Below are positions 28-61,554 of a stretch of 64,000 nucleotides of DNA, piece after piece; positions within the stretch are counted from its first letter, which is position 1; every line of letters starts with the position of its first letter. Under the pieces are notes generated by a model that had not been told where the DNA came from, made no database searches, and saw only the letters and a program-made list of their open reading frames with translations. Origin of the DNA: a virus (lineage: Duplodnaviria; Heunggongvirae; Uroviricota; Caudoviricetes); the IMG/VR virus record IMGVR_UViG_3300028800_000066, positions 8,207 through 72,206 of that record. One strand, given 5' to 3'. A program made the position numbers and the translations under genes.

Positions 28-273
28 TTATTTCTTTCCTGTAAGATAAATTAAACATCCCAATGTGTATGCTTCAGATATCAAAACCAAAGCCATGTAA
101 CCAAAAGCGAAATATGCAAAGATAGAAAAGAAATGAAAGATTAAAGCCGTAGTTGCTAACACACTAAGTTTGTTAGTGATTTTCCCACTTCTTATTTTCT
201 CTATGATTTGTTTGAGATTGTATGTGAAAAATAGCGATAGTATTATAGAAAGCGTTGCAATAAGAAAAGTCAT
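28..273 (-). CDS. hypothetical small membrane protein (3 predicted TM helices)
   Basis: Hydrophobic segments visible in the track translation. Function unknown. Confidence 0.45.
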   Translation of the reverse strand: MTFLIATLSIILSLFFTYNLKQIIEKIRSGKITNKLSVLATTALIFHFFSIFAYFAFGYMALVLISEAYTLGCLIYLTGKK

Positions 274-277
274 TTAT

Positions 278-475
278 TTATCCTTTGTTGTTGTTATTTG
301 GGTCGAAAGCACTATCGAAAGAATCTTGGACTAAAGCTATCCTATTCTTTCTCAACTTTTCAACAATCTTCTTACTTTTAAACTCTAACTCTTTTGACTG
401 CCCACCTATATTACTTATAGATGAAAGCAAATCTCCCATACTGTTCGCTGTAGATTCTTTCATGATGTCTCCCAT
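278..475 (-). CDS. hypothetical protein
   Basis: ORF tightly packed between neighbours on the coding strand. Confidence 0.4.
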   Translation of the reverse strand: MGDIMKESTANSMGDLLSSISNIGGQSKELEFKSKKIVEKLRKNRIALVQDSFDSAFDPNNNNKG

Positions 476-4175: not shown

Positions 4176-6083
4176 TTAGTTCCAACCCAAGTTGCCAAGG
4201 GAGCTAAAGTCTTCTGAGCCCTCTGTAGCTACTCTTTCGTTCTGACCAACAACTGGAAGCTTCATTGAAGCGGTTACAGTCTTTCTGTCAGATGCTTCGG
4301 TTGCGAAGACTTTCTTTGCTGGCATGGACTCTACTGCTTCCTTGAATGCCATGAAAGCGTTGTCATCGAACTTAGCAATCTTGCTGAACAAATCTAACTT
4401 AGCATTGGCTTCGCAGAATCCCTTTGAAGCGGCAACTTCTGCCAATTCAAAAGCTCTCTTAACGCGGCCTTCTGTCTCAGCAACAGCGGCGGAAACCTTC
4501 TTGTCGTAGCTTGCTGTCAATTCGTCAGCAAACTTCTTTCCTTCTGGTCCCATCTGGTCGTACAACTCGTGGTAATAGCTCTTTGTTGCTTGGTCGGTGC
4601 CCTGACCGTTTTCAGAAGCCTTTGTTACCTTGCCTTTTGCTCCTGCAACTGCGATGGTTGAATTCAATTCGCCTGTTGGCATCTTGTCTGCAACCTTCAA
4701 GTCGTGGTTCTGTTGTTCAATCTGGGTTTCAAATCTGTCACCCTTGTTGTCAACTGGAAGACCAACTGTAAGATTTCCGATATCAGTTCCACCATTTGGA
4801 TGTGCGGAATCAATTTCTCCATTACCATCCTTTGGTGCTCCGTCAGGAATTACTCCATACTTCTGTTCCTCTGCCATTGCCTTCTTCTGCAAGTCGGCTC
4901 TCTTAGCTAAGAAGTTCTTGATTGAGGCAACGCTCAATTCTCCCTCTTCTGGAACAGCTACTTCTACTGCTGAAACTGGTGCTCCACCTTCTACTGGTGC
5001 GCCTTCTGCTCCTGGAACTCCACCCTCTTCTTCTACAACTTGGTCAACTTTGGCAATTGCTTCGGTGGCCTGTTCGATTAAGGATTCTGTGGACTGCAAT
5101 GTAGCATCTGCACCTGGAAGAACTTCATCAGCGGCGGCATCAAAAGCTTCCTGAGCAATTTTCATAATAGCAACCTTAGCTGAAGCGGAAATTGTCTTGT
5201 CGCGTAAACGAGCGGCAATTTCCCTGTTCTCTTCGATTGCACCTTCAATAGCCTCTTCGACTGCCTGAAGCTCACGTCCTGCTTCTGCGGCCTTCTCTGG
5301 AAGTAACTCAATCAATTTGGTCTCTGCCATTTCGATTTCGCCCTTCTTGGCTTCTAATTCTGAAACTGTTGCGTCTGCACGGCCTGCGTCTTCACCAGCG
5401 GCAACTTCTACTGCCTCACCAACTGGAAGCTCTTCCTGATGCATTGCTGGAGCCATTGCCATCTGAGCCTTCTTAACGCTTGCTGTTGCAACTGGAGCTA
5501 CTTCTACGGCTGGAGCGACTACAGGAGTTACTTCTTCAAGTGGCTTGCCTGTAAGCAATTCTGCAACCTTGTTAACTCCCATCTTACGGATACGGGCTAT
5601 AATTTCCTGACCGTATTCCTTCGATGCTGTCATGTTTGCATTCTCTTCATTCAACTCTGGGCCCCAAATCTGGTCCAAGTTTGCCTTCAACACTAATTCC
5701 TTCTTGCCGCTCTTCTTGTCAGTTGCAAAAACTGACCAATGTGAAGACTGTGGCTTTGCTGTGCGAGTAAATGCAACGGACAACTTGGCGTTTGCAACCT
5801 TCTCGTCCATTGGAATTCTCTGCATCTTCTGCTTAAGCTTGAACTCTTCGCCCTGTGGACCCATTACCTTCTTGGTCTCTGCGGCGGCTCCTTCGAACCA
5901 CTTCTGCTCCCAAGGACGCGAATCCTGTCCACCTGGAGCGGTTGTCTCCATTGGCTTGTGAGGATAGGCCATTTCTTTTGGATAGCCCAAAGTCTTTGGG
6001 TTATTGCTGGTGATTTCGCCTTCCTTGGTTGCCTCGTCAGCGCCCTGGAACCACGCTTTCTTTAACTTATCTCTTAGACTCAT
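4176..6083 (-). CDS. Ala/Glu-rich coiled-coil protein (scaffold-like) with N-terminal shared domain
   Basis: Start moved to Met13 (AAGGAGA RBS), which removes the overlap with the HNH gene. Long A/E-rich helical sequence. N-terminal 88-aa domain repeated in ORF 15412..16260. Confidence 0.55.
   Translation of the reverse strand: MSLRDKLKKAWFQGADEATKEGEITSNNPKTLGYPKEMAYPHKPMETTAPGGQDSRPWEQKWFEGAAAETKKVMGPQGEEFKLKQKMQRIPMDEKVANAKLSVAFTRTAKPQSSHWSVFATDKKSGKKELVLKANLDQIWGPELNEENANMTASKEYGQEIIARIRKMGVNKVAELLTGKPLEEVTPVVAPAVEVAPVATASVKKAQMAMAPAMHQEELPVGEAVEVAAGEDAGRADATVSELEAKKGEIEMAETKLIELLPEKAAEAGRELQAVEEAIEGAIEENREIAARLRDKTISASAKVAIMKIAQEAFDAAADEVLPGADATLQSTESLIEQATEAIAKVDQVVEEEGGVPGAEGAPVEGGAPVSAVEVAVPEEGELSVASIKNFLAKRADLQKKAMAEEQKYGVIPDGAPKDGNGEIDSAHPNGGTDIGNLTVGLPVDNKGDRFETQIEQQNHDLKVADKMPTGELNSTIAVAGAKGKVTKASENGQGTDQATKSYYHELYDQMGPEGKKFADELTASYDKKVSAAVAETEGRVKRAFELAEVAASKGFCEANAKLDLFSKIAKFDDNAFMAFKEAVESMPAKKVFATEASDRKTVTASMKLPVVGQNERVATEGSEDFSSLGNLGWN
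5799..6062. repeat. about 260-bp dispersed repeat (copy A), encoding the shared WFQG...PHKPMETTAPGGQDSRPWEQKWFEGAAAE domain
   Basis: Near-identical to 15493..15741, with a 56-bp perfect match cccattaccttcttggtctctgcggcggctccttcgaaccacttctgctcccaagg. The track gives identical spurious plus-strand translations in both places. Confidence 0.8.
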
Positions 6084-6849: not shown

Positions 6850-7044
6850 CTTAGCTCTCCCTTTAGTAGATTGATATAAGAATTTACATATTTTTAATGT
6901 TTATTCTTACTTATACTAAAGAAAAAAATATAAGATTTTGCATGTTTTTTTCAATTTATTTCGGTGTGGTTAACAGGTTTTTAAGGTTTACAGTTTTTGA
7001 GTTGATACTCAATATTTGATTGACAAATTTGTTTTAACGGCTAT

Positions 7045-7076
7045 ATTATATCAAAAACACTATATTTTATATAGGT
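7045..7076 (-). promoter_or_regulatory. candidate extended -10 promoter (TGaTATAAT) for HNH gene
   Basis: rc reads TATATA-17-TGATATAAT in the 230-bp intergenic region upstream of ORF 6106..6849. Weak -35. Confidence 0.4.
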
Positions 7077-7506: not shown

Positions 7507-8949
7507 TTATGCCTTCTTTTGTAAATAATATTTAGTTGCGGCTCTGCTCAATTCCTCTTTAAACTTCAATTCTTTGCTGTTCAATGTTTCATCTTTTTCT
7601 TTCAATCTCTTTCCAAGTGGACCCGCTGGACCTTCCTTGGCACTCTTCTTATAAGCCTCTTCTTCTAAATCTCTTGAGGTCTTACCATCGGTGCCTTGAA
7701 TCTCCAACTTTTCATTTGGATAAATCATTTCCTTATTCTTTTTTCCTTCTTCGAATCTATCATTAATATATCCGGTCATGTTGGGGTCGAATACTTGGTT
7801 GTTCAAATAAGCTGTAGTTGTCTTTCCTTTGTCTGAAGATACAATCAATTCAGTTGTATCAACATTCTTGTTCAACAACTCAGCTACAGCATTCTCAATG
7901 CTTTTAATTCCACCAGCAGAAATCTGGTCTGCGGCGGAATCTTCAAGATTCAAATGCCAAGCCTGTTTATCTTGAGAATATGCTGTCCATTCGTAGTCTT
8001 TCTCGTTTAGAGTTACGCTACCGTTAGCCTTGTAATCTTTCCAGGTCTTACGATATGTTAACTGCTTGATGTCAATTTTAATTCTTAGCATACTTGATAC
8101 CACCTTTACGTTATCATTCTTGCGATTTGCTCTAATGTCAGTTGCACATTCTGTTCCCTTACACTGAGCATCTTCATGCATCTTCAACAAGTTTTCTGGA
8201 ATTAATGAATCGGCTAATTTTGTTTGTCTATCTCCATCAACAGCCTTCTTCAATGAAGCTATTTTCTCAAGAACATTAGCTTCTCTGAAAGCTGGTACAC
8301 CGACCCAAGATAATTCAATAAACTCAAGGTCGTGGTTGACTTCGTGAATGGGCCATGCCCCAAACTTATGTTCGGAATTATTTGTGTACATGCTCATTTT
8401 CATACCCTTGTAACCAGCGATGTGGTCACAATATTCACGGTCTGTTCTTGCGATGTTTCCGCAAACAGAACATTCCGACCAACCAACACGAGTTCCCATT
8501 GAAACGGAATTTACCATTCCAGTTTCAATATCTCGGGCCAACTGTGGATGAGACTTTTTATCTACGGCGATTAAACACTCGACACATCCATCATCTTCGT
8601 TCAAGAAGGCATCAACGACCAATCCTCTGATTGCATTTAAATCATCTGATTTGTGGTCCAGGAAATTACCCTTACCAATAAATGATTGATAGGATGCTCT
8701 TAATTCTTTCATTGGGAATCCATCACCATTCTGGTTTGGTCCCCAATTTTCCAAGCTTCCAATAGCTCTTGTTCTGATATACATAAAATCATGTGAAAGA
8801 GCTAAACTCTTTTTGAACTTAGCTACTTTTGTTTTGAACTGAGCAATAGCAATCTTCGAACCTTCTGAAGAGCCAGTTTGAGATTTTACGGTATCAAAAT
8901 CTTCAGCCTGCTCCAAGAATTGTGCTGTGGCAAATTTAGTAAAAGACAT
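7507..8949 (-). CDS. hypothetical morphogenesis-block protein (480 aa)
   Basis: Large ORF between the scaffold-like and capsid-proximal genes. Function not recognisable. Confidence 0.5.
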   Translation of the reverse strand: MSFTKFATAQFLEQAEDFDTVKSQTGSSEGSKIAIAQFKTKVAKFKKSLALSHDFMYIRTRAIGSLENWGPNQNGDGFPMKELRASYQSFIGKGNFLDHKSDDLNAIRGLVVDAFLNEDDGCVECLIAVDKKSHPQLARDIETGMVNSVSMGTRVGWSECSVCGNIARTDREYCDHIAGYKGMKMSMYTNNSEHKFGAWPIHEVNHDLEFIELSWVGVPAFREANVLEKIASLKKAVDGDRQTKLADSLIPENLLKMHEDAQCKGTECATDIRANRKNDNVKVVSSMLRIKIDIKQLTYRKTWKDYKANGSVTLNEKDYEWTAYSQDKQAWHLNLEDSAADQISAGGIKSIENAVAELLNKNVDTTELIVSSDKGKTTTAYLNNQVFDPNMTGYINDRFEEGKKNKEMIYPNEKLEIQGTDGKTSRDLEEEAYKKSAKEGPAGPLGKRLKEKDETLNSKELKFKEELSRAATKYYLQKKA

Positions 8950-13387: not shown

Positions 13388-15133
13388 TTATCTTCTAAAT
13401 ATATTAGGGAACATTGGAGAATTAGTTGGACCACCAATGCGTGTTGGTTTACCTGAAAAACTTGATGTTACTATTTTTGGCAATCCCAAGTTCATTGATT
13501 GACCACCAAAATTTGGACCAAGGCCAGTTTCACCAAGCTGAACAACTGAGGCGATGTATGCATAATTCAAGCTATGCAAGGCGTCATTAGGTTCTTCATT
13601 TTTAAATTTTTCATAGCTCTTTAATATGTTGCCAGTTCTTTCTGAATACTTTAATTCCATATTACAAATCTGTTTGATGAACCAACTGACTTTTTCAGGT
13701 TCTCTAAATGGAATTATTAAATTACCTCGTTTGATAACTTCGACCAAATCTTCAATGAAAGAATTTCTATCGACGGACAACTGCCAAGTGTCGTTATCAT
13801 ATTTAAGTTTATTTTTAATATTGGTGGAGTAGAAGCAAGATTTTACCTTATTCTGCCAAGTCTTTTGTAGCTTCTGGCACTGTGGTCCACCAAATCCAAT
13901 GTCGGCAACAACTGACGAACAATTATATAATCTAATCATGTCCGATATATACTGAACTTGTTTTTCCCAATCTGGATTCATCAGTCTTTCTGTATTTTCT
14001 AATGTATATTGACCAGTAGCGCGGTCCTTGCTTAGGATGGTCATTACGGTGTAAGCGCCCTTGTCTTTAATATCATTTCTTCCACCCCAGTCAAGACCCA
14101 TGAAGGTTTGTTTTGGTGGCTGAACTGATTTGGAAAGAGACATGTTTCTATAAGGCTCAGCGCAACGATTGGCAACCTCTTCTTCGGTGAGCGGTCTTCC
14201 GGCTCCGGAATAGAATTCTCCGAGCACCTCGTTTTTGAATCTTTCTTCAGAGTATTCAATCTGTCTAAGATTGATTTGCTCTCTAGTGATTCTTGGAGAA
14301 AGAAGCTGAGATACATGGAAGCCCACACGCTCTGTACCAAACTTAGATGGAATCCACTTTCCGTCCTTCATGATAATGCGTTTGTCGCTCATCTTCTTAC
14401 ACTTGGGACATTCGACCATGAATCCAGTCTTAAAGTTATCTAATGTAATCTGAAAATAATGTGAACAAGAAGGACACTTTAAATGGAAATATCTTCTGTC
14501 AGATGACATCCACAAAGTATCAAATTTGGAACCCGCTAACTTTGGTGTACCAAATGAGAAATCAATTTTATAGTCAGAAGCATCAAGACATGAATTGGTG
14601 TTAGCAATAGCGTCTGAAGTCCAGTCCTGGAATTCATCTCTGGAAAGCATGTCGGCTGGAATACCACGCAAGGCGTCAGCCTGTCCCCATGCTGAGTAAA
14701 TATAATAATGATTTTCGTTTGCGAATTCGATGGACGATACCGTATCTGAACCAGTTTTGTTTTTCAACTTCTCAAGTTTCGGTATTCTATCAATTTTTTG
14801 ACTTGTTCTAATCGACTGTTGTAAACGGTCTTTCGAATAACGTGAAGCCTGTTCGCTTCTTGGAAAAGCGTGAAGAACTGTAAAGTCAGAATAATTCTTC
14901 AAGAAATATAATGATATGTTGAGGGCTGTTTCGGTCATTTCAACCTGACGGCCCTTACATATAACAATTGGCTTATGTTCAATCATCGAACCTATGCAAG
15001 CATATCTATACAAATCGACTAAGTATTCTCTGCCAGTACCGATGATTTTAAAATTCTTACCCTTTACTGTTCTATGTGTTTCAATAAAATAGATGGGGTC
15101 CAAATTAAGTGCTGTATCCAGTAAACTTTCCAT
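13388..15133 (-). CDS. terminase large subunit
   Basis: Walker-A-like CKGRQVEMTET. Large size. Adjacent to portal. Start moved to Met16 (GGAAGGG RBS). Confidence 0.7.
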   Translation of the reverse strand: MESLLDTALNLDPIYFIETHRTVKGKNFKIIGTGREYLVDLYRYACIGSMIEHKPIVICKGRQVEMTETALNISLYFLKNYSDFTVLHAFPRSEQASRYSKDRLQQSIRTSQKIDRIPKLEKLKNKTGSDTVSSIEFANENHYYIYSAWGQADALRGIPADMLSRDEFQDWTSDAIANTNSCLDASDYKIDFSFGTPKLAGSKFDTLWMSSDRRYFHLKCPSCSHYFQITLDNFKTGFMVECPKCKKMSDKRIIMKDGKWIPSKFGTERVGFHVSQLLSPRITREQINLRQIEYSEERFKNEVLGEFYSGAGRPLTEEEVANRCAEPYRNMSLSKSVQPPKQTFMGLDWGGRNDIKDKGAYTVMTILSKDRATGQYTLENTERLMNPDWEKQVQYISDMIRLYNCSSVVADIGFGGPQCQKLQKTWQNKVKSCFYSTNIKNKLKYDNDTWQLSVDRNSFIEDLVEVIKRGNLIIPFREPEKVSWFIKQICNMELKYSERTGNILKSYEKFKNEEPNDALHSLNYAYIASVVQLGETGLGPNFGGQSMNLGLPKIVTSSFSGKPTRIGGPTNSPMFPNIFRR

Positions 15134-15411
15134 ATACCCTTCCAAATCTATACTGCGCCACACTATAGTTAGTAGCATGACGCAGTATAATTTATTCTGT
15201 CATACTCATTATAACAAATCAAATGTCAATTTGTTATATTATTTTGACATTAATTATTGATGCTTGTGGAACTGTAAAGCTCTCATTGCGGCATGGGCAT
15301 CACCACAAGAATCGTGATGACTTAAAACCTTTCCGCTATGACTATCTAAAACCACCCATTTTCCGCCGCGATTCTTAATAAATTCAGTCTCGTGGCATGG
15401 ACCATCAGCTT

Positions 15412-30995: not shown

Positions 30996-31010
30996 TATTT
31001 ACCTTAATTG

Positions 31011-31359
31011 TGGAGGCGGTGGGAATCGAACCCACGTCCAAACAACTTTCCAAATTCAATCTACGTGTGTGTTCGGTTTTGCAGTCCGACAACTGTATTC
31101 GTTTTGTCCGTTTCGTTTTCATCTTAGCAGGGCAGAGTTATAACTGTCAGACTAATAAACTCTTACACTGAGCATCCTAAAGCGGCTCTGAAATTCACAC
31201 CTATAGGAGTCGGTGGTCAGAGTAGTCGCTATTAAGCGGCTAGTAGTTCCATTTCTTCGGCATTTCAATTTGTCTGCAAAGGTTTTTAGAGGGCCTTCAC
31301 GACAACTCCCTCACACGCATGAATGTTGTACTGTTATCTGTCGAAACCAAGTCGCCCCC
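31011..31359 (-). ncRNA. ssrA: tmRNA (SsrA)
   Basis: 5' GGGGGCGACUUGGUUUCGACAG. 3' tRNA-like end GGACGUGGGUUCGAUUCCCACCGCCUCCA. Internal tag reading frame ...GCC GAA GAA AUG GAA CUA CUA GCC GCU UAA UAG (AEEMELLAA). Confidence 0.8.
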
Positions 31360-38347: not shown

Positions 38348-38579
38348 AGTCTAATACTGGCTTGCTTACAGCTTCTAACATTTTTTCAATATCATACTTT
38401 AAATCAGAAACCTCTTCTCCCGTCATTTCTACAGAGTTTTCAGAGATTCCGTTGGGATTTCCATCCTTATCATACCATACTGTGTGAATGGCAAAATAAG
38501 TATAACCATCAGGATAAATCTTGTTTAATGATTCAGCGACGGGTTTGTTACGCTTGATTAGTCTGTAATTCCATCCCAT
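38280..38579 (-). CDS. hypothetical protein
   Basis: ORF. Confidence 0.35.
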   Translation of the reverse strand: MGWNYRLIKRNKPVAESLNKIYPDGYTYFAIHTVWYDKDGNPNGISENSVEMTGEEVSDLKYDIEKMLEAVSKPVLDYAIFEEMEKKHAPVESDNRSDS

Positions 38580-39687
38580 TTTTTCCTCGTTTGAAATTAC
38601 CGACCTTATAGGCCAATTGTAATTTCCGAACTTCTTCCTGTTCCTCTTTGCTGAAACTCAATCCAGCTTTCACAGCGTAACGTAATTGATTGTTGAAAAG
38701 ATTTCCGCACGTACTTTCTGAAATGCTTAAAGTTTTTGCGATTTCAGGATAACTGAATCCCTTTAGAATCATTTCTCTAGCTGAGCGAATAATCTCAATC
38801 GAGAATTTTTGTTGAGCCTTAGAAAGATTATCCAAATTCGTGTCACTAATCCTTCTCTTAGCAAGAGAAATGTTGGCTCTTGCTTCTTCCGAGAAAACGC
38901 GGCCATTATTGTTTCTTCCATTACAAGACAAGTTCTCATCCAGATTTTCTGTGTGCATGAGAATACGCAATCTACGGAAAGCTATAAAAGTGATTTGACG
39001 AGCACGTTCAGTTGTCAATCCCATCACAACAGCCATTTGCTTATAGGTTTTGTGATTAAAATAGTATTCTCGGATTGCCATGCGTTCCTTGATGGTTAAC
39101 TTATTGTTGATTACCTTGATAAGCTTCGTCCGTAAATCTTTATCATCTAACTCTTCTGCCAAGTTATCTTCAATCTCAACAGTCTCATTATCCGGAATCA
39201 CATCGTTATAAGAACGATTAGTCCCATCATCAGAAAGCAAGGGAGCGTTTAGATAAATCAACCTATCATTCATGTGAGCCCTGGCTTCTTCCTTATGATT
39301 CTCATAATCACCAGTAGGAATTTTCAGGATGTGATTAGCTCTCATGCAATGTTGCATCTTCTGATTAATCCAGTATGCGGAATAAGTCAAGAATTTAAAC
39401 TTACGATTAACTTTAAACTTTTCAAGACTATGCATAAATCCGATAACGCCAGCATTAAAGAAATCATCAACTTCGATACTGGGATTAATCCGGTGAAAAC
39501 GATGTGCTTGTTTACGAATAAAACGAATATGATTCTGGAAAATTAATTCTCTGAATCTATATTTGTCATCTTCGTTCTTAGCACTTTTATATTGTTTAAT
39601 CAATTTAAGAATCTCTGGATACTTTAAAACCTTCTGCTTAAGCAGAAAAATCATTTCAGGAGATTCTTTACTGGTATCAAACGACAT
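38548..39687 (-). CDS. sigma-70 family sigma factor with extra C-terminal HTH
   Basis: Region 2-like FNAGVIGFMHSLEKF...YSAYWINQ. Region 4-like ERMAIREYYF...MAVVMGLTTERARQI. Additional SYPEIAKTLSISESTC HTH. Confidence 0.6.
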   Translation of the reverse strand: MSFDTSKESPEMIFLLKQKVLKYPEILKLIKQYKSAKNEDDKYRFRELIFQNHIRFIRKQAHRFHRINPSIEVDDFFNAGVIGFMHSLEKFKVNRKFKFLTYSAYWINQKMQHCMRANHILKIPTGDYENHKEEARAHMNDRLIYLNAPLLSDDGTNRSYNDVIPDNETVEIEDNLAEELDDKDLRTKLIKVINNKLTIKERMAIREYYFNHKTYKQMAVVMGLTTERARQITFIAFRRLRILMHTENLDENLSCNGRNNNGRVFSEEARANISLAKRRISDTNLDNLSKAQQKFSIEIIRSAREMILKGFSYPEIAKTLSISESTCGNLFNNQLRYAVKAGLSFSKEEQEEVRKLQLAYKVGNFKRGKNGMELQTNQA

Positions 39688-41183: not shown

Positions 41184-41296
41184 ATTGCGGCCAAACGCTT
41201 CCTTTTCGGAAGTAAGGGTTCCCCTCTGGATTATTCGCGGAAACCCTCGTGGTATTCCAGCACCACATTTCATTCGGCATAAAGTATTTCGCTGGA

Positions 41297-41470: not shown

Positions 41471-42325
41471 TTATTCAAGATGTTCAACTACACTTCTCAA
41501 GATTTTAGCGGTGGTCTGTCTCAAAGTTCTGTGATGTTTAACCACGCCATAACCATGATACTCTTTATTCATTTCAATCAAAAGCTTGTGAGCGGCTTCC
41601 CTATCTGGACCATGAGGAAGTTGAGTCTTTGTATAAAGTTCATCACAAAGAGCTTCGAGCCTTTTTGCTTCTTCTAGAAAACGTTCCTTGCTCCATTCAC
41701 CCTTTTTGACGGTTAGAACAAGCTGGTTTTCTTTTAGAGGAAGCGTGATTTTGCCAGTTGACAAAAGCTCATTAGCCTCAAGATACAATCTAAGAGCGTG
41801 AGAAGCCATCTTAGTATCATATCCAAACTTCTGAATCAATTCTTGTCTTCCACTTCCATTATCTTCGCCACGCTGTAGTCTCTGGACCTGAGTGTGGCTA
41901 TAACCTTTAAAGCTGTGATAGCTTTTCTTGGACAAGAAGATTTCTTTGTTATCAAAAAGCTTCTGCCCTAGAGGATGTACGTATAACCTGCAATTCTCCG
42001 GAACAAATAATGTTTCTAAAGTATTCGGATTGTTATTTAGAAGCAATTCCATAAACTTTGGAAGTGCATACAATGTGCAATCCATATCAGCGGAAGTATT
42101 CTTCTTTCCAGAACCCGTATCGTTGGTTCTGAATTCTACCTGTTCGATGTTCTTCAATCCCAAAAGATACTCTTCGTCAGGCATGAATACACCAACAAAG
42201 TCCTGGTCGCTCTTGCCTGGGATATTGGTTCCATACATGACCGACCCAACACGTAGGAATAGCAAGCAGTTTTCGACTGCCATCTTCCTCTCGACTGTGT
42301 TTTGTAGAAGTTCTGTATGTTTCAT
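41471..42325 (-). CDS. Pol-beta superfamily nucleotidyltransferase
   Basis: GSVMYGTNIPGKSDQDFVGVF (GS...[DE]xD nucleotidyltransferase signature). Driven by consensus promoter P1. Confidence 0.55.
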   Translation of the reverse strand: MKHTELLQNTVERKMAVENCLLFLRVGSVMYGTNIPGKSDQDFVGVFMPDEEYLLGLKNIEQVEFRTNDTGSGKKNTSADMDCTLYALPKFMELLLNNNPNTLETLFVPENCRLYVHPLGQKLFDNKEIFLSKKSYHSFKGYSHTQVQRLQRGEDNGSGRQELIQKFGYDTKMASHALRLYLEANELLSTGKITLPLKENQLVLTVKKGEWSKERFLEEAKRLEALCDELYTKTQLPHGPDREAAHKLLIEMNKEYHGYGVVKHHRTLRQTTAKILRSVVEHLE

Positions 42326-46554: not shown

Positions 46555-46642
46555 TGACCAAGGAGAGATTCGAACTCTCACGCCCATTACAGGCAACGGT
46601 ATCTAAAGCCGTCATGTCTACCTATTTTTTCATCACTCGGCC
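46555..46642 (-). tRNA. type-II tRNA, probable Leu (TAG) with oversized D-loop
   Basis: Acceptor ggccgag/cttggtc (2 G-U). AC stem acggc/accgt with loop TTTAGAT. Variable arm tgcctgtaatgggcgt. Fold less certain than the others. Confidence 0.45.
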
Positions 46643-46664
46643 ATGCTTGTTGCTTTTTATATTG

Positions 46665-46748
46665 TGGGCCAGGAGGGACTTGAACCCCCACTCCCCGAAG
46701 GGAACCACATTTTGAGTGTGGCGTGTCTGCCAGTTCCACCACTAGCCC
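46665..46748 (-). tRNA. tRNA-Leu (CAA), type II
   Basis: Loop CTCAAAA. Variable arm ttcccttcggggagt. Confidence 0.75.
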
Positions 46749-46761
46749 GTTATTACTTTCG

Positions 46762-46837
46762 TGACCTCCCTCGGATTCGAACCGAGACGTAAACTAGGTT
46801 TGAGCTAGTTCCCTCTACCAAATTGGGGTAGGAGGCC
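46762..46837 (-). tRNA. tRNA with anticodon CAA (Leu UUG) but type-I short variable arm
   Basis: ggcctcc|ta|ccc..ggg|a|actag-CTCAAAC-ctagt|ttacgt|ctcgg-ttcgaat-ccgag|ggaggtc|a. A73. Confidence 0.55.
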
Positions 46838-47359
46838 GTTAACGGTTTAATCCGGTTACATCACCGTAAGTTTTATAAATCACCGGAACTTATCCCAGTC
46901 ATTAATTCGTCCACTCGTCAGACTGGGAATTGAGAGTGAGACTATTCGGCTTAGTATTTTCGTCTAATTAAATACAAATTAATTGACGAACTAGCCAAAC
47001 TTTTTATCTTTTTTATACTGCCACCCACGGTCTGCGCCTTACGGAACTATCCTTTCGGACGTTTCGCAAACTACGTGGGTTAATTAATCGGCGGGATTTG
47101 GTTATCTCTGGTAGTGGAATACGGTCCACTAAGCACAGTTATCGGTCCTGCCCCTTGCGGGTTCTCGCCAAACTTAAATCCAAGTGTGGTGCGAACCTGT
47201 CTGCCATATCCGCTCACCTATTTTCGGGTTCTATCCCTTACCGCAGACTCGACTTGGATTTAATGCGCTTTCAGCCTTGCAGTTTTGTCTCTCGACAATA
47301 CCTCGGTCCATTCCATTTCGTAGATGAAATGAGGTTTCGACTTAGTGCTGAAACTTTAA
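46838..47359 (-). ncRNA. about 520-nt non-coding, highly structured element embedded in a tRNA operon (candidate large ncRNA)
   Basis: No ORF of 60 aa or more on either strand. Flanked directly by tRNAs. Long-range complements, e.g. UUAAAUCCAAGU...ACUUGGAUUUAA, GUCUGC...GCAGAC, GGUAAGGG, and two AGAACCCG motifs. Confidence 0.45.
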
Positions 47360-47436
47360 TGGTGGTTCCGGAGGGATTCGAACCCCCTACCCTTCGGGTA
47401 GAAACCGAATGCTCTATCCAGATGAGCTACGGAACC
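47360..47436 (-). tRNA. tRNA-Arg (TCT), second copy, CCA encoded
   Basis: Loop TTTCTAC. Confidence 0.7.
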
Positions 47437-47533
47437 ATATTTTTATCTAGGTCACATTGACTTGTGTTAACCTTGGAAAAGATGGAAGCCCAACCCTATC
47501 GACAATCGGTAACTTCTCCAAGACCTAGATTCG

Positions 47534-47562
47534 ATTACTTAGGTATTATATCACATTCCCAT
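47534..47562 (-). promoter_or_regulatory. consensus sigma70 promoter P2 (TTGACA-17-TGaTATAAT) for tRNA/ncRNA array
   Basis: rc: ggcTTGACAaatttatgggaatgTGaTATAATacc. First genes downstream are tRNA-Arg 47436 and the 520-nt element. Confidence 0.75.
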
Positions 47563-47595
47563 AAATTTGTCAAGCCCTTTTATCGTTTCATAATG

Positions 47596-47669
47596 TGAAC
47601 CAGATGGGACTCGAACCCATATAACTCCCTTACGTTATCCCGCTTCGGAGGCGAGAACGGTACTGGTCC
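47596..47669 (-). pseudogene. tRNA-like element (74 nt) without a D-arm; possible tRNA pseudogene or tRNA mimic
   Basis: Good acceptor ggaccag/ctggttc and T-arm atggg-ttcgagt-cccat. The internal region folds as ctcgc-CTCCGAA-gcggg (anticodon-like CCG) enclosed by cgtt/aacg, so there is no room for a D-arm. Confidence 0.35.
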
Positions 47670-47670
47670 A

Positions 47671-47826
47671 TCACTTTTTCTTTCTAGCTTCTTTCAATCT
47701 CTTTTTTCTATCTTCGATTGCTTCTTGTAATTTCTTAGCGAATTCATCATTTCTTGGTCTGTTTCTGGATTCTGGTCTTACATTGATTTCACTTGGAATT
47801 GGTTTAATTGGCTCAATTTTATCCAT
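47671..47826 (-). CDS. small Lys/Arg-rich ORF (51 aa)
   Basis: MDKIEPIKPIPSEINVRPESRNRPRNDEFAKKLQEAIEDRKKRLKEARKKK. Immediately downstream of the kinase gene. Confidence 0.35.
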   Translation of the reverse strand: MDKIEPIKPIPSEINVRPESRNRPRNDEFAKKLQEAIEDRKKRLKEARKKK

Positions 47827-48420
47827 TTAATTAGTACCAGTCCTTAAATTATTTAGCCACTCTTGTAGCTTTTTATCAATCACTTCTTCATCGCCATCAT
47901 TAACTAGGACAAGATTGCAACGACTAATCTCTTCATGAGTTATAAAAACGGAATCAACCTGGGCTTCTGCAACTTCTCTTGATATATTTCTTCCATGAAT
48001 CAGTCTTTCTAACCTAACTTCTCTAGGTGCAGTCACTAGAAGGATGTTATCAAACAACTTCTCAGCACCAGATTCGAACAATACAGGTATATCAAAGAAT
48101 AACATTTTATTTTCGACTGCCTTATGTCGTTCAATTACTTTTCTGATTTCATCCAAAATTCCAGGGAACATCAGGTCGTTAAGTTTCTTCAATTCCGTTC
48201 TGTTATTAAAAACTAAGATAGCTAACTTTTTCGTATCAAGACCGCCATCTTCTTTAAGATATTCTTTCCCAAACAAGTCAATAATTCTGGAAACAAACTT
48301 ATGTCGAATATTTCTAGCCAAATCATCTACATCATAAACACAATAACCATTTTGTCTTAAGCTTTGTGATATTTTAGATTTTCCAGAACCACTAGGTCCA
48401 GTAATCCCGATGACTTTCAT
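47827..48420 (-). CDS. coaE: P-loop kinase, dephospho-CoA kinase (CoaE)-like
   Basis: MKVIGITGPSGSGKS Walker A. DVD and LN..HP motifs align with CoaE. Could equally be a polynucleotide or nucleotide kinase of the same fold. Confidence 0.6.
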   Translation of the reverse strand: MKVIGITGPSGSGKSKISQSLRQNGYCVYDVDDLARNIRHKFVSRIIDLFGKEYLKEDGGLDTKKLAILVFNNRTELKKLNDLMFPGILDEIRKVIERHKAVENKMLFFDIPVLFESGAEKLFDNILLVTAPREVRLERLIHGRNISREVAEAQVDSVFITHEEISRCNLVLVNDGDEEVIDKKLQEWLNNLRTGTN

Positions 48421-50169: not shown

Positions 50170-50556
50170 TTACCAATCCAATGTTCCAGCATTAACACAG
50201 GCTACACCAAAAACAGCGCCAACAGCTACATCCAATAACTCTGCCTTGAAATGAGTTTTGTCGTTTTTATGTAAAGCTTCCATCATTTCACGATGTTCTT
50301 CATCTACTACACCAGCGATTTCGTGAGTTGAAGCAAATGTTCCATAACCTTTTTGTTTAAGTCTACGATTAAGTTCTAATCTGAATTCCATAACAGCTTG
50401 TTCAATTTGTTCTTGCGTAATTTCCAGTCTAGCATTAGCCATTTGTTCTCCACGCGCAGGAACTTCCATGTCCGAATCCAGTCCCGCCATAAGGGCATCA
50501 ATTTCGCTCTGACTTAATATATCGTCCACTCTATGCTCTGAGAAGATTTCGCTCAA
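50170..50556 (-). CDS. MazG-like all-alpha NTP pyrophosphohydrolase (putative)
   Basis: ASTHEIAGVVDEEHREMMEAL...ELLDVAVGAVF acidic helix pattern. Confidence 0.45.
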   Translation of the reverse strand: MSEIFSEHRVDDILSQSEIDALMAGLDSDMEVPARGEQMANARLEITQEQIEQAVMEFRLELNRRLKQKGYGTFASTHEIAGVVDEEHREMMEALHKNDKTHFKAELLDVAVGAVFGVACVNAGTLDW

Positions 50557-51550
50557 CGGCTTGACCGTGCATCCAATGTTTCACGGTCTGGATGTGATTC
50601 TTTCTCACATATTTAGCCGCAGACTTTCTAAAATCACCGTATGAAAACTTGTCAGCAATTCTGATTACATATCCTTCTTTGCTCTGCCAATTTTCTTTGT
50701 TGTACAAAGCTTTAATTTTTGTCTCATCATAGATTCCATCATACAAAACTGGAACGCTTTGGATGTTCAAAAGATTAAACCAAGAAGCCGTATCATCCCA
50801 ATCCAGGCATTCGTTCTTTTCATTCCAAACCGAGAATCCCATGAAATAGGTGGGGAGATTATCGTAGCCAATTGAGTGTTTGGCCCAAAGATTCTCACCG
50901 CAGACTCTCCAACCTTCGGGGATATCGTTAGCGATTGCCGCCCAAAAGTTCTTTACCCAATTTCTAGAAACATGAGTGTCACTGTTTATACTTCTTGCAT
51001 GGATGTGGTCACGATACATTGTCGTGTTTTCTCCATCCATTTTTTCTGTAACAATAACTCTTTTACCTTCAAAACTTTTCATGTTCTCAATCATGCGGTC
51101 ATCATCGTTCATGTTTTCCGACCAAGGAACATGGTATGTTCTAGGATATTTTACATAACTGGTAAACTGTCCGAGAACATCAGCTAAAATCTTTTGGACG
51201 CTCAAATCGTAAAACAACTCACCTTTAAGTCTTTGACCATTGGGAAGAATAATGTTTCCCCATTTATCGTAAGTCTGGTCGTGATAGAAATGTTCTGGAA
51301 GAACTGGTTTAGTAATTCCGCACTTCTCACGAACTTGTTCCACAGAAATATTGGTCTTTTCACATTCAATGTGATGTTCTTCGCAAACCGAAGCGCCATT
51401 GTTTAGAAAATAACCGCCATTTCCCCAAATCCTACGTTCAATTATATGGTGTGCATCTGCCGCTGGTTCTCCACAAAATACGCACTTATGACCATCTCTT
51501 TTGAAGACGCCCTCACGGAATTCATCACGAGTGAGCAATTTGGATTCCAT
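50531..51550 (-). CDS. HNH nuclease fused to ATP-dependent RNA ligase-like nucleotidyltransferase
   Basis: N-terminal CVFCGEPAADAHHII...CEEHH. Ligase motif I TEKMDGEN (KxDGxN), motif IV EGYVIR, motif V AAKYVRK. Confidence 0.55.
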   Translation of the reverse strand: MESKLLTRDEFREGVFKRDGHKCVFCGEPAADAHHIIERRIWGNGGYFLNNGASVCEEHHIECEKTNISVEQVREKCGITKPVLPEHFYHDQTYDKWGNIILPNGQRLKGELFYDLSVQKILADVLGQFTSYVKYPRTYHVPWSENMNDDDRMIENMKSFEGKRVIVTEKMDGENTTMYRDHIHARSINSDTHVSRNWVKNFWAAIANDIPEGWRVCGENLWAKHSIGYDNLPTYFMGFSVWNEKNECLDWDDTASWFNLLNIQSVPVLYDGIYDETKIKALYNKENWQSKEGYVIRIADKFSYGDFRKSAAKYVRKNHIQTVKHWMHGQAVERNLLRA

Positions 51551-53273: not shown

Positions 53274-53281
53274 GCCAAAAG

Positions 53282-53318
53282 AAAACCCCTCCGAACTTTT
53301 TTTAAGGTCCGGAGGGGT
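53282..53318 (-). terminator. rho-independent terminator abutting promoter P3
   Basis: CCCCUCCG-GACCUUAAAAAAAGUU-CGGAGGGG followed by UUUUCUUUUGG. The U-tail overlaps the -35 of P3. Confidence 0.7.
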
Positions 53319-53492
53319 TAATTTAGTGGTTGATGATTGCAGTTTAAACCATTAAACTAGACCCTCTTAGACAATAGATTTCTATTACCCAACCAGAGGT
53401 TAGATATTGTTCGTCCATTGGTTAAAGAGGTTAAAGTCTTCATGATTAAACCTTCCGTCTATTTGTGTAGACAAAGTAGTGCATCTACTTCA
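53319..53492 (-). ncRNA. candidate about 200-nt small transcript between ext -10 promoter and terminator (sRNA or 32-aa micro-ORF)
   Basis: Bounded by the TGaTATAAT element (53498-53506) and the terminator 53282-53318. Contains hairpins GUAG-AUGCA-CUAC and AGGUUUAA...UUUAACCU. Also a possible 32-aa ORF with GGAAGG RBS. Confidence 0.35.
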
Positions 53493-54017: not shown

Positions 54018-55721
54018 TTAACCCTTGATGAAGTCACTCATCACGGCTGGGGCAGATGAATCGAATCCTACCACGTCTAACATTCCAGCATCGTTAGGGT
54101 CTGCAATCGTGAAATCATTCGTAACCATACCAACCACAACTGACTTGGCATTGTTACTAGACTGCTTGCGATATTCTGCAAGAGCCTGATGTGGGTGAAT
54201 TCTTCCAGCATAAGTCTCGTTATCGGTGTAGACAAAGAAAGCATCTACATCTAACTTATTCTGCTTTGCATAAACCATCGGCAAAGAGCAATCAGTTCCA
54301 CGGAAAGGAAGATTATTGATGACTGAGATTACATCATCCAATCTCTTCTTTCCAGAAATGTTCAAGTCAATGAACTCTGTCGAGAATCCCTTGATATAGA
54401 CGTTCTTCTCAACCTTTGCAGTAACCATTGCCATAGCCGCGCTTACCACTCTTGGCGTAAGACCTGGAATACCAGAAATTGAACCGCCGTCCATTGAACC
54501 AGACACGTCCAAGGCCAACATGATGTTCTTTCCAGTTGGCTCAACATTATCAAATGCTGTGTAGAAAGCAGAATCCAATGCGTCCACAACTGTCTGGACC
54601 GGAGTCCAGGAATTTCCACCACGCTCACCGTGACCCTGCTGATAAACCTTCAAGGCCGACAATAACTGAATCGGATGCACTCTCGCCTTCTTCAAAGCCT
54701 CTACATTAGCAAGCTTTTCAGCGACAAGCTTTGAACCCTGTGAAAGCGGTGCAATCAATCCAACTCTTGTCATTGTTGCAATATTACGAATCATTGCAGT
54801 CAATGGCATGTGCGGAAGTAATGCATCCCACACTTCAATGGTGTTAAGTAACTCTGTAGGAACAGCTTCACGAGGAAGTTCGTGTTCTCTAATCAATCCA
54901 ACAATTTCAGAAGCAGTCGTTGCCCTCTGAGCCTGTTCGAAAGCATTAATCATCGGGTGGATATTGACGATAAGCTTTCCTTCATTGTCATAGTGCGACT
55001 TTACCCATGACTGAATCTGCTCGTGCTTCTCGGAATACTTCACCTTTGCCGAATCGTTCTTGGCAGAGACAGGGGCATCCTTACCAGCCTTATACTTATT
55101 CCACGCAACCCACTGATAGATATCATTACGTGCGGCATCAGCGGTCTTCAAGTGAGCAAGACGCAACGCATCACGATGTTCAAAACCTTCACGATTACGA
55201 TACTTAATAACCTGTAATGCAAGGCCATCCAAGTTCTTCTCGTTATACCAACGCTGAACTGCCTTACGCAATCCAGTACCAGTTCCCTTGCCAATGGTGT
55301 CCGCAATCGACAAGAACTGGAACAAATGTGTGGCGATTCTGCATACCTTTGAAAGGTTCTGATATGCATACGCACGAGTAGCCGCATCACCATGCTTTAC
55401 GACAAGCGCAAGAGCAAACACAGCGGGGTCATTCTTTGGAGCGCGACCATTGTGAGAAATTTCCACAATAGTATCAACAGTCTTGCGACCATTTTCCTTC
55501 ACGCACTCCAAGATGCACTTCGCACTGTCCTGTGTCATCTTGTGCTCGGATGCATAATACGAGCCACCCTCGTTTCCAAGAATCAAGAAACGGTTTAAAC
55601 GGGTCCAGTTGTCTACCTTGAATGTAAAGCCACCCGCGCTGTTTGGAACCTGATTGCTTCCGAATACCTTCTCGGACTGGGGTGTAACCTTAGTTGAAAC
55701 GTGCGAAGCATAGTTTGACAT
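54018..55721 (-). CDS. vWA-domain protein with Ro60/TROVE-like architecture (Rsr-like, inferred)
   Basis: C-terminal vWA MIDAS LALDVSGSMDG...T...D. About 400-aa helical N-terminal module. 567 aa matches the Ro60 size and domain order. GGAAGAGGAG RBS. Own consensus promoter. Confidence 0.5.
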   Translation of the reverse strand: MSNYASHVSTKVTPQSEKVFGSNQVPNSAGGFTFKVDNWTRLNRFLILGNEGGSYYASEHKMTQDSAKCILECVKENGRKTVDTIVEISHNGRAPKNDPAVFALALVVKHGDAATRAYAYQNLSKVCRIATHLFQFLSIADTIGKGTGTGLRKAVQRWYNEKNLDGLALQVIKYRNREGFEHRDALRLAHLKTADAARNDIYQWVAWNKYKAGKDAPVSAKNDSAKVKYSEKHEQIQSWVKSHYDNEGKLIVNIHPMINAFEQAQRATTASEIVGLIREHELPREAVPTELLNTIEVWDALLPHMPLTAMIRNIATMTRVGLIAPLSQGSKLVAEKLANVEALKKARVHPIQLLSALKVYQQGHGERGGNSWTPVQTVVDALDSAFYTAFDNVEPTGKNIMLALDVSGSMDGGSISGIPGLTPRVVSAAMAMVTAKVEKNVYIKGFSTEFIDLNISGKKRLDDVISVINNLPFRGTDCSLPMVYAKQNKLDVDAFFVYTDNETYAGRIHPHQALAEYRKQSSNNAKSVVVGMVTNDFTIADPNDAGMLDVVGFDSSAPAVMSDFIKG

Positions 55722-60347: not shown

Positions 60348-60729
60348 AAAGTATTCAGCCAGTTCCTCGGATGCGCTAACATCGTCACCGTCCCTGGCCG
60401 TGCTGATTTAGTTAATTAGCGTCAGTTGATGCGATAACCAGCAATAAAACGCATCTTCCCTAGCCGCTTCTGCCTACTTCCACACAAAAACCAACGTAGA
60501 GGCGGCACCGTCAGTCTTTTAGCATTGTGTGAAAAAGCTCTCCATAATCAATTACATGGTGATTCTTGGTGGTGCAAGAATCTTTTTAGAATGCTGGACT
60601 TATTACTAGAGGTCCACAATCTAGTTCCGGTCAAGCCTCGCACTTGACTTCTCTCTGGCTCTGCCAGCCGCTTTGATTTAATAAGCTACGGATTCACTCT
60701 ATTATCTTACCACAGACCACGTAATCTTG
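60348..60729 (-). other. GC-rich about 380-nt non-coding structured region (candidate large ncRNA, 3' part)
   Basis: No ORF. GC visibly higher than flanking genes. Many local hairpins (GAUUCUUG-CACCACC-AAGAAUC, CUAG-AUUGUGGACCU-CUAG, UGCGCUAA...UUAGCGUCA). Confidence 0.4.
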
Positions 60730-60802: not shown

Positions 60803-61072
60803 ATGCATCCTTATCTTAGTCTTAGGATGTTTATTTCATTGGCGCACCAGACGTTTTATTAGTCGCTTATTAAATAGACTTTCGTCTATACGGTTCACGA
60901 GGCCGCTTTTCGTCAACTAATAAAATCTTAAGACCAAATATATATTCAATGCATCACTTCATGGGGGCGTTTCATGTCCCCTACCTACACACTGGACTTT
61001 GCCAGTTTTCAGTCCTTTCGGGTACGTTCCATCCGTACTGCTCTTCTATGATGATTGAATAGCTCTTACAAT
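60803..61072 (-). other. about 270-nt non-coding structured region between cspA and tRNA-Glu (candidate ncRNA 5' part or cspA 3' UTR)
   Basis: No ORF. Hairpins GUACG-GAUGGAA-CGUAC and GGACU-(13 nt)-AGUCC. No canonical terminator. Confidence 0.35.
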
Positions 61073-61354: not shown

Positions 61355-61376
61355 TTAATACCGCCTTTATTCCTTG

Positions 61377-61451
61377 TGTCCTCGGTGGGAGTCGAACCCA
61401 CAACCCTCCGATTAAGAGTCGGATGCTCTAAACCAGTTGAGCTACGAAGAC
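61377..61451 (-). tRNA. tRNA-Lys (CTT)
   Basis: Loop CTCTTAA. Confidence 0.75.
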
Positions 61452-61554
61452 ATAAAACTTTAATGGTAATGGTCGATTCTGGTAGGCCCATTACATCTAC
61501 CTTCCCCGACCTCCAAATGGTCGGCGTCCTAAGGGATTTTAGACGAAAAATCGG

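Follow-up and report, generated by a model that had tools for sequence, protein, structure and literature searches.

A structured RNA of a putative new family in the tRNA operon of an uncultured large phage

What does a phage make from 522 nt that lie between two tRNA genes and contain no open reading frame (ORF) of 50 aa or more on their own strand? This question is raised by the element at positions 46838-47359 of a 64,000-nt stretch of DNA (positions 8,207 to 72,206 of the IMG/VR virus record IMGVR_UViG_3300028800_000066), which is referred to here as the window. An earlier sequence-only reading described the element as a highly structured RNA in a promoter-driven tRNA operon and likened it to the GOLLD and ROOL RNAs of phages. 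Here, the element is read, with modest confidence and from genomic sequence, as a real non-coding RNA of a new, rare and undescribed family in a phage tRNA operon. The case for a real RNA is good, and the case for a single functional RNA of 0.5 kb is moderate. The RNA is numbered 1-522 from window position 47359 downwards (- strand), and the coordinates of the main features are collected in Table 1.

Relatives for comparison were reached via the clade of the dephospho-CoA kinase CoaE. They are metagenomic, with 45-83% identity, and 12 contigs were looked up. A homologue of the element is present in one of these, L016 (Logan SRR23086399), two others (L009 and L015) hold another RNA in the slot, and nothing was found in the remainder. 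At the protein level, L016 and the window have CoaE alone in common, at 49% identity. The gene order in L016 is as in the window: a TTGACA-17-TATAAT promoter and a leader are followed by tRNA-Arg(UCU), a 313-nt ORF-free RNA and tRNA-Leu. The last ~100 nt of this 313-nt RNA correspond to RNA 409-518 (nhmmer E = 2e-18), with 86% identity over 99 nt. Apart from this block, the two RNAs have in common just two short anchors in collinear order: UUAAAGUUU directly behind the tRNA and CGAUUAAUUA at RNA 270-279 (window 47090-47081). The latter is the sole piece of the predicted central domain that can be aligned to L016.

In the alignment of RNA 405-522 with L016 6088-6204, which contains a 1-nt indel, the shared block can be drawn as two consecutive H-type pseudoknots, with helix X interleaving with helix Y and helix S1 with helix S2. 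This 3' domain lies directly upstream of a tRNA with a Leu anticodon in both phages, and 4 nt separate its end from the downstream tRNA. Across the 24 helix pairs, 97.9% of the cells are standard pairs; one X pair is broken in L016. Compensatory double changes are found in five of the 24 pairs and are spread over all four helices (G418:C451 to C:G, A423:U447 to G:C, C434:G465 to U:A, C474:G508 to U:A and A493:U518 to G:C), and they account for 10 of the 16 differences in RNA 418-518. A shift of the 3' partners by 1-3 columns removes every compensatory pair and lowers pairing to 27-44%. When 16 random substitutions were simulated with the helix set fixed, five compensatory pairs were obtained in none of 200,000 trials (P < 5e-6) and at least three in 0.1%. 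As judged from these two sequences, it has been shown that the 3' domain is under selection for RNA structure, which is kept by compensatory evolution in an otherwise very different phage. A covariance model of the domain, searched against 165 kb of related loci, found only its two source sequences. Covariation, which the sequence-only reading had named as a check, is present in the 3' ~100 nt, a part that it had not singled out; the 12-bp helix and the boxes GGUAAGGG and AGAACCCG that it highlighted belong to the portion of the element for which the sole homologue shows no conservation.

The second line of evidence is the folding of the element as a whole. Its minimum free energy is -153.2 kcal/mol, compared with -128.5 +/- 6.0 for shuffled sequences (z = -4.15), and none of 100 shuffles was as stable, in agreement with the strong structure claimed earlier. 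In a separate set of shuffles, z was -4.2 on the - strand and -3.7 on the + strand. Most of the signal is contributed by nt 1-417 (z = -5.07) and, within them, nt 183-417 (z = -4.81). All helices and boxes first quoted (UUAAAUCCAAGU/ACUUGGAUUUAA, GUCUGC/GCAGAC, GGUAAGGG and two copies of AGAACCCG) are present, and only 3 of 200 dinucleotide shuffles contain a perfect 12-bp helix. Hairpins of at least 3 bp with a GNRA cap number four on the RNA strand, compared with 1.2 expected (P = 0.03), and one on the + strand. The fold of the 5' body was computed from one sequence with helices Y and S1 imposed; in this fold, the helices of the central domain have mean pair probabilities of 0.8-0.98, and the first two hairpins of RNA 1-75 are weakly predicted (0.2-0.4).

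Within the 5' body, several short repeats have been observed. The motif UUAAAGUUU is also found behind the tRNA in L016, and AAAGUUU stands behind tRNA-Arg(ccg) in L028; a role of UUAAAGUUU as a general tRNA trailer was rejected, since only a few tRNAs carry it. By eye, AAGUUU (behind the tRNA in L016; RNA 4-9, 186-191 and 358-363) is complementary to AAACUU (RNA 487-492), and AUUAAUU (RNA 271-277) is complementary to AAUUAAU (RNA 453-459). Both complementary stretches are invariant in the element and L016 and serve as a lead only, as do the conserved palindromic single-stranded stretches GAUUAAUUA and AUUAAU, also noticed by eye, in their case with a view to a possible self-assembly into homo-oligomeric cages. 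The AAGUUU and AUUAAUU stretches could make long-range contacts or, being palindromic, intermolecular contacts. In addition, the arrangement UUUAAGUUUG-stem...stem-GAUUAAUUA at RNA 183-279 mirrors L016 5892-6005, and because of this a division into two tandem units (1-182 and 183-522) was considered. Such a division is possible, but the predicted closing helix 77-81/339-343 joins both parts.

The setting of the element is that of an operon. It fills the whole space between tRNA-Arg(UCU) and the next tRNA called by ARAGORN, and no other stretch of the window that is free of tRNAs and of - strand ORFs of at least 50 aa is as large. That it is ORF-free, as first described, is borne out: the longest - strand ORF within it is 45 aa, and the sole long ORF at this place (120 aa, TTG start) is antisense, on the + strand, and runs into a tRNA. 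The consensus promoter reported upstream is present, ~11 nt away from where it had been placed. No terminator-like sites were found on the - strand from 47900 to 45700. The six further tRNAs that were said to follow the element before the next gap are reached only if the ARAGORN-only call at 46761-46837 and an Rfam-only call at 46555-46642 are counted. The former is not called by the Rfam tRNA model, whether with the gathering score or with E up to 10. It has a class-I shape and a mismatched D stem despite its Leu anticodon, and a normal tRNA-Leu(CAA) comes next at 46664-46748. The gene at 46761-46837 may be tRNA-like without functioning as a tRNA-Leu.

The leader in front of tRNA-Arg(UCU) contains 66 nt with 95% identity to L016 5694-5759. 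It looks like a three-way junction, as does its L016 counterpart (5655-5762), in two phages that share almost no protein, and by eye its closing stems show compensating changes (CUAGGUC/GACCUAG vs CAAAGGUC/GACCUUUG, and CUUGGAGAAG/CUUUUCCAAG vs CUUGGGAGAG/CUUUCCCAAG). No Rfam match was found for the leader (E up to 10). It could be a cis-acting element of the operon, involved for example in processing or antitermination.

Table 1. Features of the element, its operon and the window
Feature	RNA position	Window position	Strand	Basis
Element, ORF-free structured RNA, 522 nt		46838-47359	-	gap between two tRNA calls
Conserved 3' domain, two H-type pseudoknots in a row	418-518	46842-46942	-	comparison with L016
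Helix X	418-424/446-451		-	
Helix Y	433-439/460-466		-	
Helix S1	473-478/504-509		-	
Helix S2	493-497/514-518		-	
UUAAAGUUU motif right after tRNA CCA, then small hairpins including UUGUC-GAGA-GACAA	1-75	47285-47359	-	constrained fold
Central multibranch domain, closing helix ACUGC/GCAGU (77-81/339-343), three arms	77-343	47017-47283	-	single-sequence prediction
Arm 1: 12-bp helix and GUCUGC/GCAGAC	97-186		-	predicted
12-bp helix UUAAAUCCAAGU/ACUUGGAUUUAA	97-108/175-186	47263-47252/47185-47174	-	sequence
GUCUGC/GCAGAC helix	112-117/156-161		-	sequence
Box GGUAAGGG	118-125		-	sequence
Motif AGAACCCG	128-135 and 195-202		-	sequence
Arm 2: GCAA-capped hairpin and 7-bp hairpin UAGUGGA/UCCACUA	189-272		-	predicted
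Arm 3: ACCCACG/CGUGGGU stacked on GUUUGCG/CGCAGAC (7 bp each), GAAA- and GUAA-capped tips	280-337		-	predicted
A-rich linker	344-359		-	predicted
Long A/U-rich hairpin	360-416	46944-47000	-	single sequence; pair probabilities 0.92-1.0
Sigma-70-type promoter, TTGACA-17-TATAAT, TG before -10		47545-47573	-	12/12 consensus positions
Structured leader, ~100 nt, promoter to tRNA-Arg(UCU)		47437-47538	-	5' end inferred from -10 hexamer
tRNA-Arg(UCU), encoded CCA, gene end ...GGAACCACCA; 3' end is the 5' boundary of the element		47360-47436	-	ARAGORN; Rfam tRNA 65 bits
tRNA-like gene, anticodon CAA, 77 nt, short variable arm; 5' end is the 3' boundary of the element and presumed RNase P site		46761-46837	-	ARAGORN only
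Terminase large subunit		13388-15178	-	Pfam
Sigma factor		38548-39687	-	Pfam
RlaP-family nucleotidyltransferase		41471-42325	-	Pfam
Dephospho-CoA kinase CoaE		47827-48420	-	Pfam
RNA ligase		50531-51550	-	Pfam
Ro60 (TROVE + vWA)		54018-55721	-	Pfam

Co-transcription of the element with the tRNAs and its release by tRNA-processing enzymes, as proposed by the sequence-only reading, are a reasonable inference from the tRNA strand, the consensus promoter and the lack of a terminator. RNase Z, one of the enzymes then named, is not the expected 3' enzyme at tRNA-Arg(UCU), because this tRNA encodes its CCA; most tRNAs of the window do not. Transcription would start from the promoter at 47573-47545 and run through the conserved leader, tRNA-Arg(UCU), the element and the downstream tRNAs. 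An endonucleolytic cut just past the encoded CCA would create the 5' end of the RNA; the element begins with UUAAAG, and the sequence UUAAAG|UUU at this place resembles an RNase E site. The host tRNA-processing machinery would excise the RNA, and RNase P, by cleaving in front of the downstream tRNA, would produce the 3' end ...ACCGUUAAC, which finishes with UUAAC, 4 nt past S2. These excision steps follow what is generally known of the processing of bacterial tRNA operons. The released RNA would consist of an ornate, lineage-variable 5' body of ~400 nt, for which a multibranch fold with GNRA-capped arms is predicted from one sequence, and a conserved 3' domain of ~100 nt with the two covarying pseudoknots. 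This domain most likely provides a compact end that resists 3'-to-5' exonucleases and lets the RNA accumulate stably, because the second pseudoknot ends so close to the RNase P site, and it may also hold the functional core. The context leads to the working guess of a trans-acting, GOLLD/ROOL-like accessory RNA that is tied to the genes around it for the supply and repair of tRNAs, namely those for RNA ligase, RlaP and Ro60 and the tRNA array.

Large structured RNAs appear to recur at this position in the clade, because the slot in L009 and L015 holds another conserved RNA. In both contigs, Ro60...CoaE, a small ORF and a promoter-led segment precede tRNA-Arg(UCU) and a large ORF-free gap; L009 has a tRNA-Arg(CCG) after the small ORF, and ARAGORN calls none there in L015. 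The gap behind tRNA-Arg measures 477 nt in L009 and 693 nt in L015, with L015 6745-7298 aligning to L009. These gaps are homologues of one another: of the 109 pairs predicted from the two sequences, 9 are compensatory, and L015 has an additional insertion of 90 nt. The conserved structured RNA of 480-550 nt (L009 11164-11640/L015 6745-7298) stands before a 107-aa ORF and abuts the ribosome-binding site of that gene. It has no nhmmer similarity to the element of the window and no Rfam match.

Several points weigh against a single RNA of a new family. The evidence is at the level of the genome and comes from two sequences, the covariation is a single pairwise comparison of these two distinct sequences, and its helices were drawn after inspection of the sequence. 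In the thermodynamic ensemble, helices Y and S1 are disfavoured (pair probabilities 0.01-0.04), and a competing GUGA-capped hairpin at RNA 491-504 fits both sequences; the 3' domain may have this hairpin as a conformational alternative. The 5' ~400 nt of the element cannot be aligned to the 313-nt RNA of L016 and have no comparative support, and the whole L016 RNA folds modestly beyond shuffles (z = -2.0). No further copy of the element was seen in the pattern scans of IMG/VR, JGI and GTDB. In addition, L010, L014, L020, L023 and L024 have no large gap downstream of CoaE within the contigs examined, and the RNA therefore appears to be accessory.

Some of these points would also fit a spacer of composite origin, in which only the last ~100 nt are functional, as a cis module for RNase P cleavage, pre-tRNA stability or the blocking of exonucleases, and the 5' ~400 nt are lineage-specific filler or accreted modules that are degraded after processing. 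As the main rival reading, this is possible, if rather unlikely. Conservation in L016 is confined to the 3' domain and the two short anchors, the module stands right before a tRNA with a Leu-type anticodon in both phages, and UUAAAGUUU-like motifs at RNA 1, 183 and 356 fit junctions between units. Small structured modules also move in tRNA regions, as seen for a tRNA-Gly module in the L015 RNA (described below), 51 nt in the L016 tRNA-Arg and a tRNA-bearing insert in L028. However, it is the part without conservation that has the strongest folding signal (z = -5.1, nt 1-417), and the predicted closing helix of the central domain unites three arms in one domain. GNRA-capped arms are typical of RNAs with tertiary structure, and 400 nt of filler would be unusual in so tightly packed a genome.

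The tRNA-Arg(UCU) of L016 (5765-5888) has a structured 51-nt insertion in the anticodon loop and is called by ARAGORN only in intron mode. Deletion of the 51 nt restores a normal tRNA-Arg(tct). In length, the insertion falls far short of a group I intron, which leaves an unusual tRNA intron of a bacterial virus or a disrupted tRNA. In the window, tRNA-Arg(ccg) at 47595-47680 (- strand, 86 nt) reaches only 32 bits with the Rfam tRNA model. In L028 (997-1197), the closest relative with 83% identity in CoaE, the two halves of its counterpart are separated by an inserted segment with a normal tRNA-Arg(CCG), and this gene looks like a tRNA-like shell with variable cargo.

It is improbable that the element is a very divergent GOLLD, ROOL, RNase P RNA, group I intron or transfer-messenger RNA (tmRNA) that the Rfam models missed. 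ROOL RNAs belong to a size class similar to that of the element, and GGUAAGGG and AGAACCCG recall stretches of the Escherichia coli RNase P RNA. GOLLD and ROOL are phage and prophage RNAs that lie near tRNA islands, contain multiple pseudoknots and form RNA-only cages; GOLLD has a conserved 3' region and a variable 5' region, and ROOL has no known protein partner (PMC12286853). The element shares much of this: it is flanked by tRNAs within an array of 41 ARAGORN tRNA calls (31.4-64 kb) in a phage-like window with a terminase, and multiple pseudoknots are predicted in it. Its layout, as seen in one pairwise comparison, may likewise be variable at the 5' side and conserved at the 3' side. The analogy first drawn to these RNAs therefore holds for the context, since such RNAs often lie near tRNA islands (PMC12286853), and fails for membership, since there is no Rfam match. 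The element has 522 nt, compared with >800 nt in many GOLLD members. It differs from ROOL, in addition to the missing model match, in having two representatives only and a 5' body without a consensus structure.

Rfam 15 was applied with gathering scores to the whole window and, with E up to 10 and the laxest filters, to positions 46700-47600 (901 nt), to the element alone and to L016. At gathering scores, only tRNAs and a tmRNA were found in the window and nothing in the element; at E up to 10, the element gave noise only (best 14.8 bits, E = 2.3). The cmscan that had been suggested for GOLLD, ROOL, RNase P, introns and tmRNA thus matched none of them at gathering scores and gave noise at E up to 10. 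Up to this limit, neither the element nor L016 has a match to the models of GOLLD (RF01998), ROOL (RF03087), RNase P RNA, group I introns or tmRNA, and the self-cleaving ribozymes have none in the element. RNase P RNA (RF00010/RF00011) is rejected, because no model matched and neither the CR-I consensus GAGGAAAGUCCGGGC nor the P4 3' strand ACAGAANCCGGCUUA was found in 46838-47359 with up to 3 mismatches; the earlier statement that an RNase P core is lacking was correct. Group I and II introns have no Rfam match either. Both flanking tRNA genes are complete, the element interrupts no gene, and its ends are not intron-like, with a final C and not G. For tmRNA (RF00023 and permuted forms), the sole match around the element (11.4 bits, E = 7.4, permuted model) overlaps tRNA-Arg, and the real tmRNA of the window (31008-31359; 116.7 bits, Rfam gathering score) is dissimilar to the element, for which reason pseudoknots derived from it are rejected. 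A hammerhead ribozyme, suggested by CUGACGAG...GAA, was rejected because the required GAAA is not kept in L016, and an HDV-like fold was rejected by eye because the P3 and P4 hairpins are missing.

Equally improbable is a Y RNA, that is, a partner or substrate of the phage Ro60 that is encoded 6.7 kb upstream of the element on the same strand. The window contains a Ro60 gene with TROVE and vWA domains, and the order Ro60...CoaE...tRNA-Arg is common to L001, L009, L010 and L015. Y RNAs are 80-130 nt long, lie within ~4 kb of Ro60, and carry the motif GNCGAAN0-1G and a tRNA-like domain (PMC4201824). The element departs from these in size and in distance to Ro60, has no match to the Y RNA and YrlA models (RF00019, RF02553), and GNCGAAN0-1G was not seen in it by eye. 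Moreover, a better candidate lies just downstream of Ro60 and a ~126-aa ORF, with its own promoter and terminator. In this unit (~53276-53491, - strand), a -10-like GATATAAT is followed by an RNA of ~215 nt with the conserved core …AGACGAACA…CUGGUUGGGUAAU…AAUCUAUUGUCU…AUCAUCA…, an intrinsic terminator (CCCCUCC…GGAGGGGUUUUCUUUU) and a second TTGACA/TATAAT promoter toward tRNA-Asn. The RNA is kept at the same place in L009, L015 and L010, that is, in four phages including the present one; the gap folds with z = -5.25 and has no Rfam match. It is likely a phage Y RNA and candidate Ro60 partner, because it is on the same strand, <1 kb from Ro60, and contains GACGAA, which is close to GNCGAAN0-1G.

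A decayed protein gene, a row of degenerate tRNAs or a DNA element such as an origin or packaging site is hardly tenable: the element is as long as a small gene or six tRNAs could be, folding of the + strand is likewise above chance, and A-U/G-C exchanges and G-C/C-G flips would be equally tolerable in a DNA hairpin, but each of the six frames has 6-13 stops with no Pfam match and a sole PHROGs match at noise level (E = 0.18), which also disposes of the decayed gene once named as a possible refutation, neither ARAGORN nor the Rfam tRNA model (E up to 10) calls a tRNA inside the element, the interleaved helices and the GNRA loops found on the transcribed strand only are features of RNA, and the 3' domain alignment contains an indel.

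The rarity of the element follows from searches in several collections. The same sequence was recovered in a 110-kb metagenome contig and seven shorter contigs (ENA, JGI and Logan assemblies); these eight contigs are of the same phage and show 100% identity within the element, and they therefore contain no comparative information. A literature search with the sample accessions, meant to show whether any source is a metatranscriptome, gave nothing. When the INPHARED phages were searched by blastn, none of three queries (element, L016 unit and L009 RNA) matched more than a tRNA arm. Four exact or degenerate patterns of the element had no match in IMG/VR, and pattern scans gave only two chance matches in the JGI metagenomes and three in the GTDB genomes. 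No second copy is present within the window. The phage itself is similarly isolated. Its terminase has only 32% identity to those of the nearest cultured phages, and a neighbouring 358-aa HHH_8 protein retrieves itself alone from a set of 5.8 billion proteins. Neither this protein nor CoaE has a relative in IMG/VR (single-protein searches; CoaE also as an alignment of 19), and a megablast of 12 kb around the element has the tRNA-Leu of Synechococcus phage S-PM2 as its sole match. On these sequence comparisons, the source is a large, uncultured phage to which the collections searched (IMG/VR and INPHARED) contain nothing closely related.

All genes of the window are on the - strand. Its part from 31008 to 64000 (~33 kb, one strand) is centred on RNA, with tRNAs for most amino acids, the tmRNA, Ro60, the RNA ligase, the RlaP-family nucleotidyltransferase, CoaE and an extra sigma factor. 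Further ORF-free gaps on the - strand are found among tRNA-Glu and tRNA-Lys genes, at 60348-60728 (381 nt, GC 0.45, z = -1.7) and 60803-61072 (270 nt, z = -2.7). The junction of tRNA-Arg and the element is spanned by the 12-mer CCAUUAAAGUUU, and this 12-mer recurs just upstream of tRNA-Lys 61376-61451 (site 61452-61552). A module of ~100 nt at 41184-41296 (- strand), between two tRNA-Gly(UCC) genes, has a closing stem GCCGAA/UUUGGC and three hairpins, one of them with the invariant UUCCGAAAAGGAA. The 90-nt insertion in the large RNA of L015 (~6965-7055) is the same module (nhmmer E = 1.4e-5). Its stems show compensating changes by eye, no Rfam family was matched at gathering scores, and it behaves like a mobile or reusable RNA module.

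Among known systems, the closest precedent for the probable making of the element is provided by RNAC and RNAD of phage T4, with which its genomic position and promoter are compatible. These RNAs are small, about 120-140 nt, and are co-transcribed with tRNAs and released by tRNA-processing nucleases. They are non-tRNA RNAs from the T4 tRNA gene cluster, and their roles are still unassigned (PMC3014915). The element is far larger and, as described above, has no blastn similarity to any INPHARED phage. The two H-type pseudoknots right 5' of a tRNA or tRNA-like unit also recall the pseudoknots that stand in series beside a tRNA-shaped domain in tmRNA (PK2-PK4) and in the 3' untranslated regions of tobamoviruses (upstream pseudoknot domain and tRNA-like structure). 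This likeness is one of topology only, and the TMV_UPD-PK3 match is noise (10.7 bits, E = 8), on the other strand and elsewhere in the element.

By its sequence and context, the element is without a described family, yet it belongs with the large structured RNAs of phage tRNA islands. A bolder reading, which is rather doubtful, takes it as a new class of ornate RNA in which the tandem-pseudoknot domain, coupled to a tRNA in the precursor, would be the functional core and not a mere stabiliser: a ribozyme, a ligand- or protein-binding domain or a domain for the assembly of RNA-only multimers like those of GOLLD and ROOL. Such an RNA would act in tRNA supply and repair, perhaps by countering tRNA-targeting host nucleases as a decoy or scaffold, and the RNA found in the slot of L009 and L015 would be its analogue, a cargo that can be exchanged for it. 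Large structured RNAs of unexplained function are rare, and GOLLD, ROOL, OLE and raiA have each opened new biology. The element would extend these RNAs by a family from a so far unsampled lineage of phages, with a compact domain of ~100 nt in which two pseudoknots end 4 nt from an RNase P site. Because related phages hold another RNA in the slot, and because small modules recur between and inside tRNA genes, the locus points to phage tRNA islands as a general source of RNAs not yet described.

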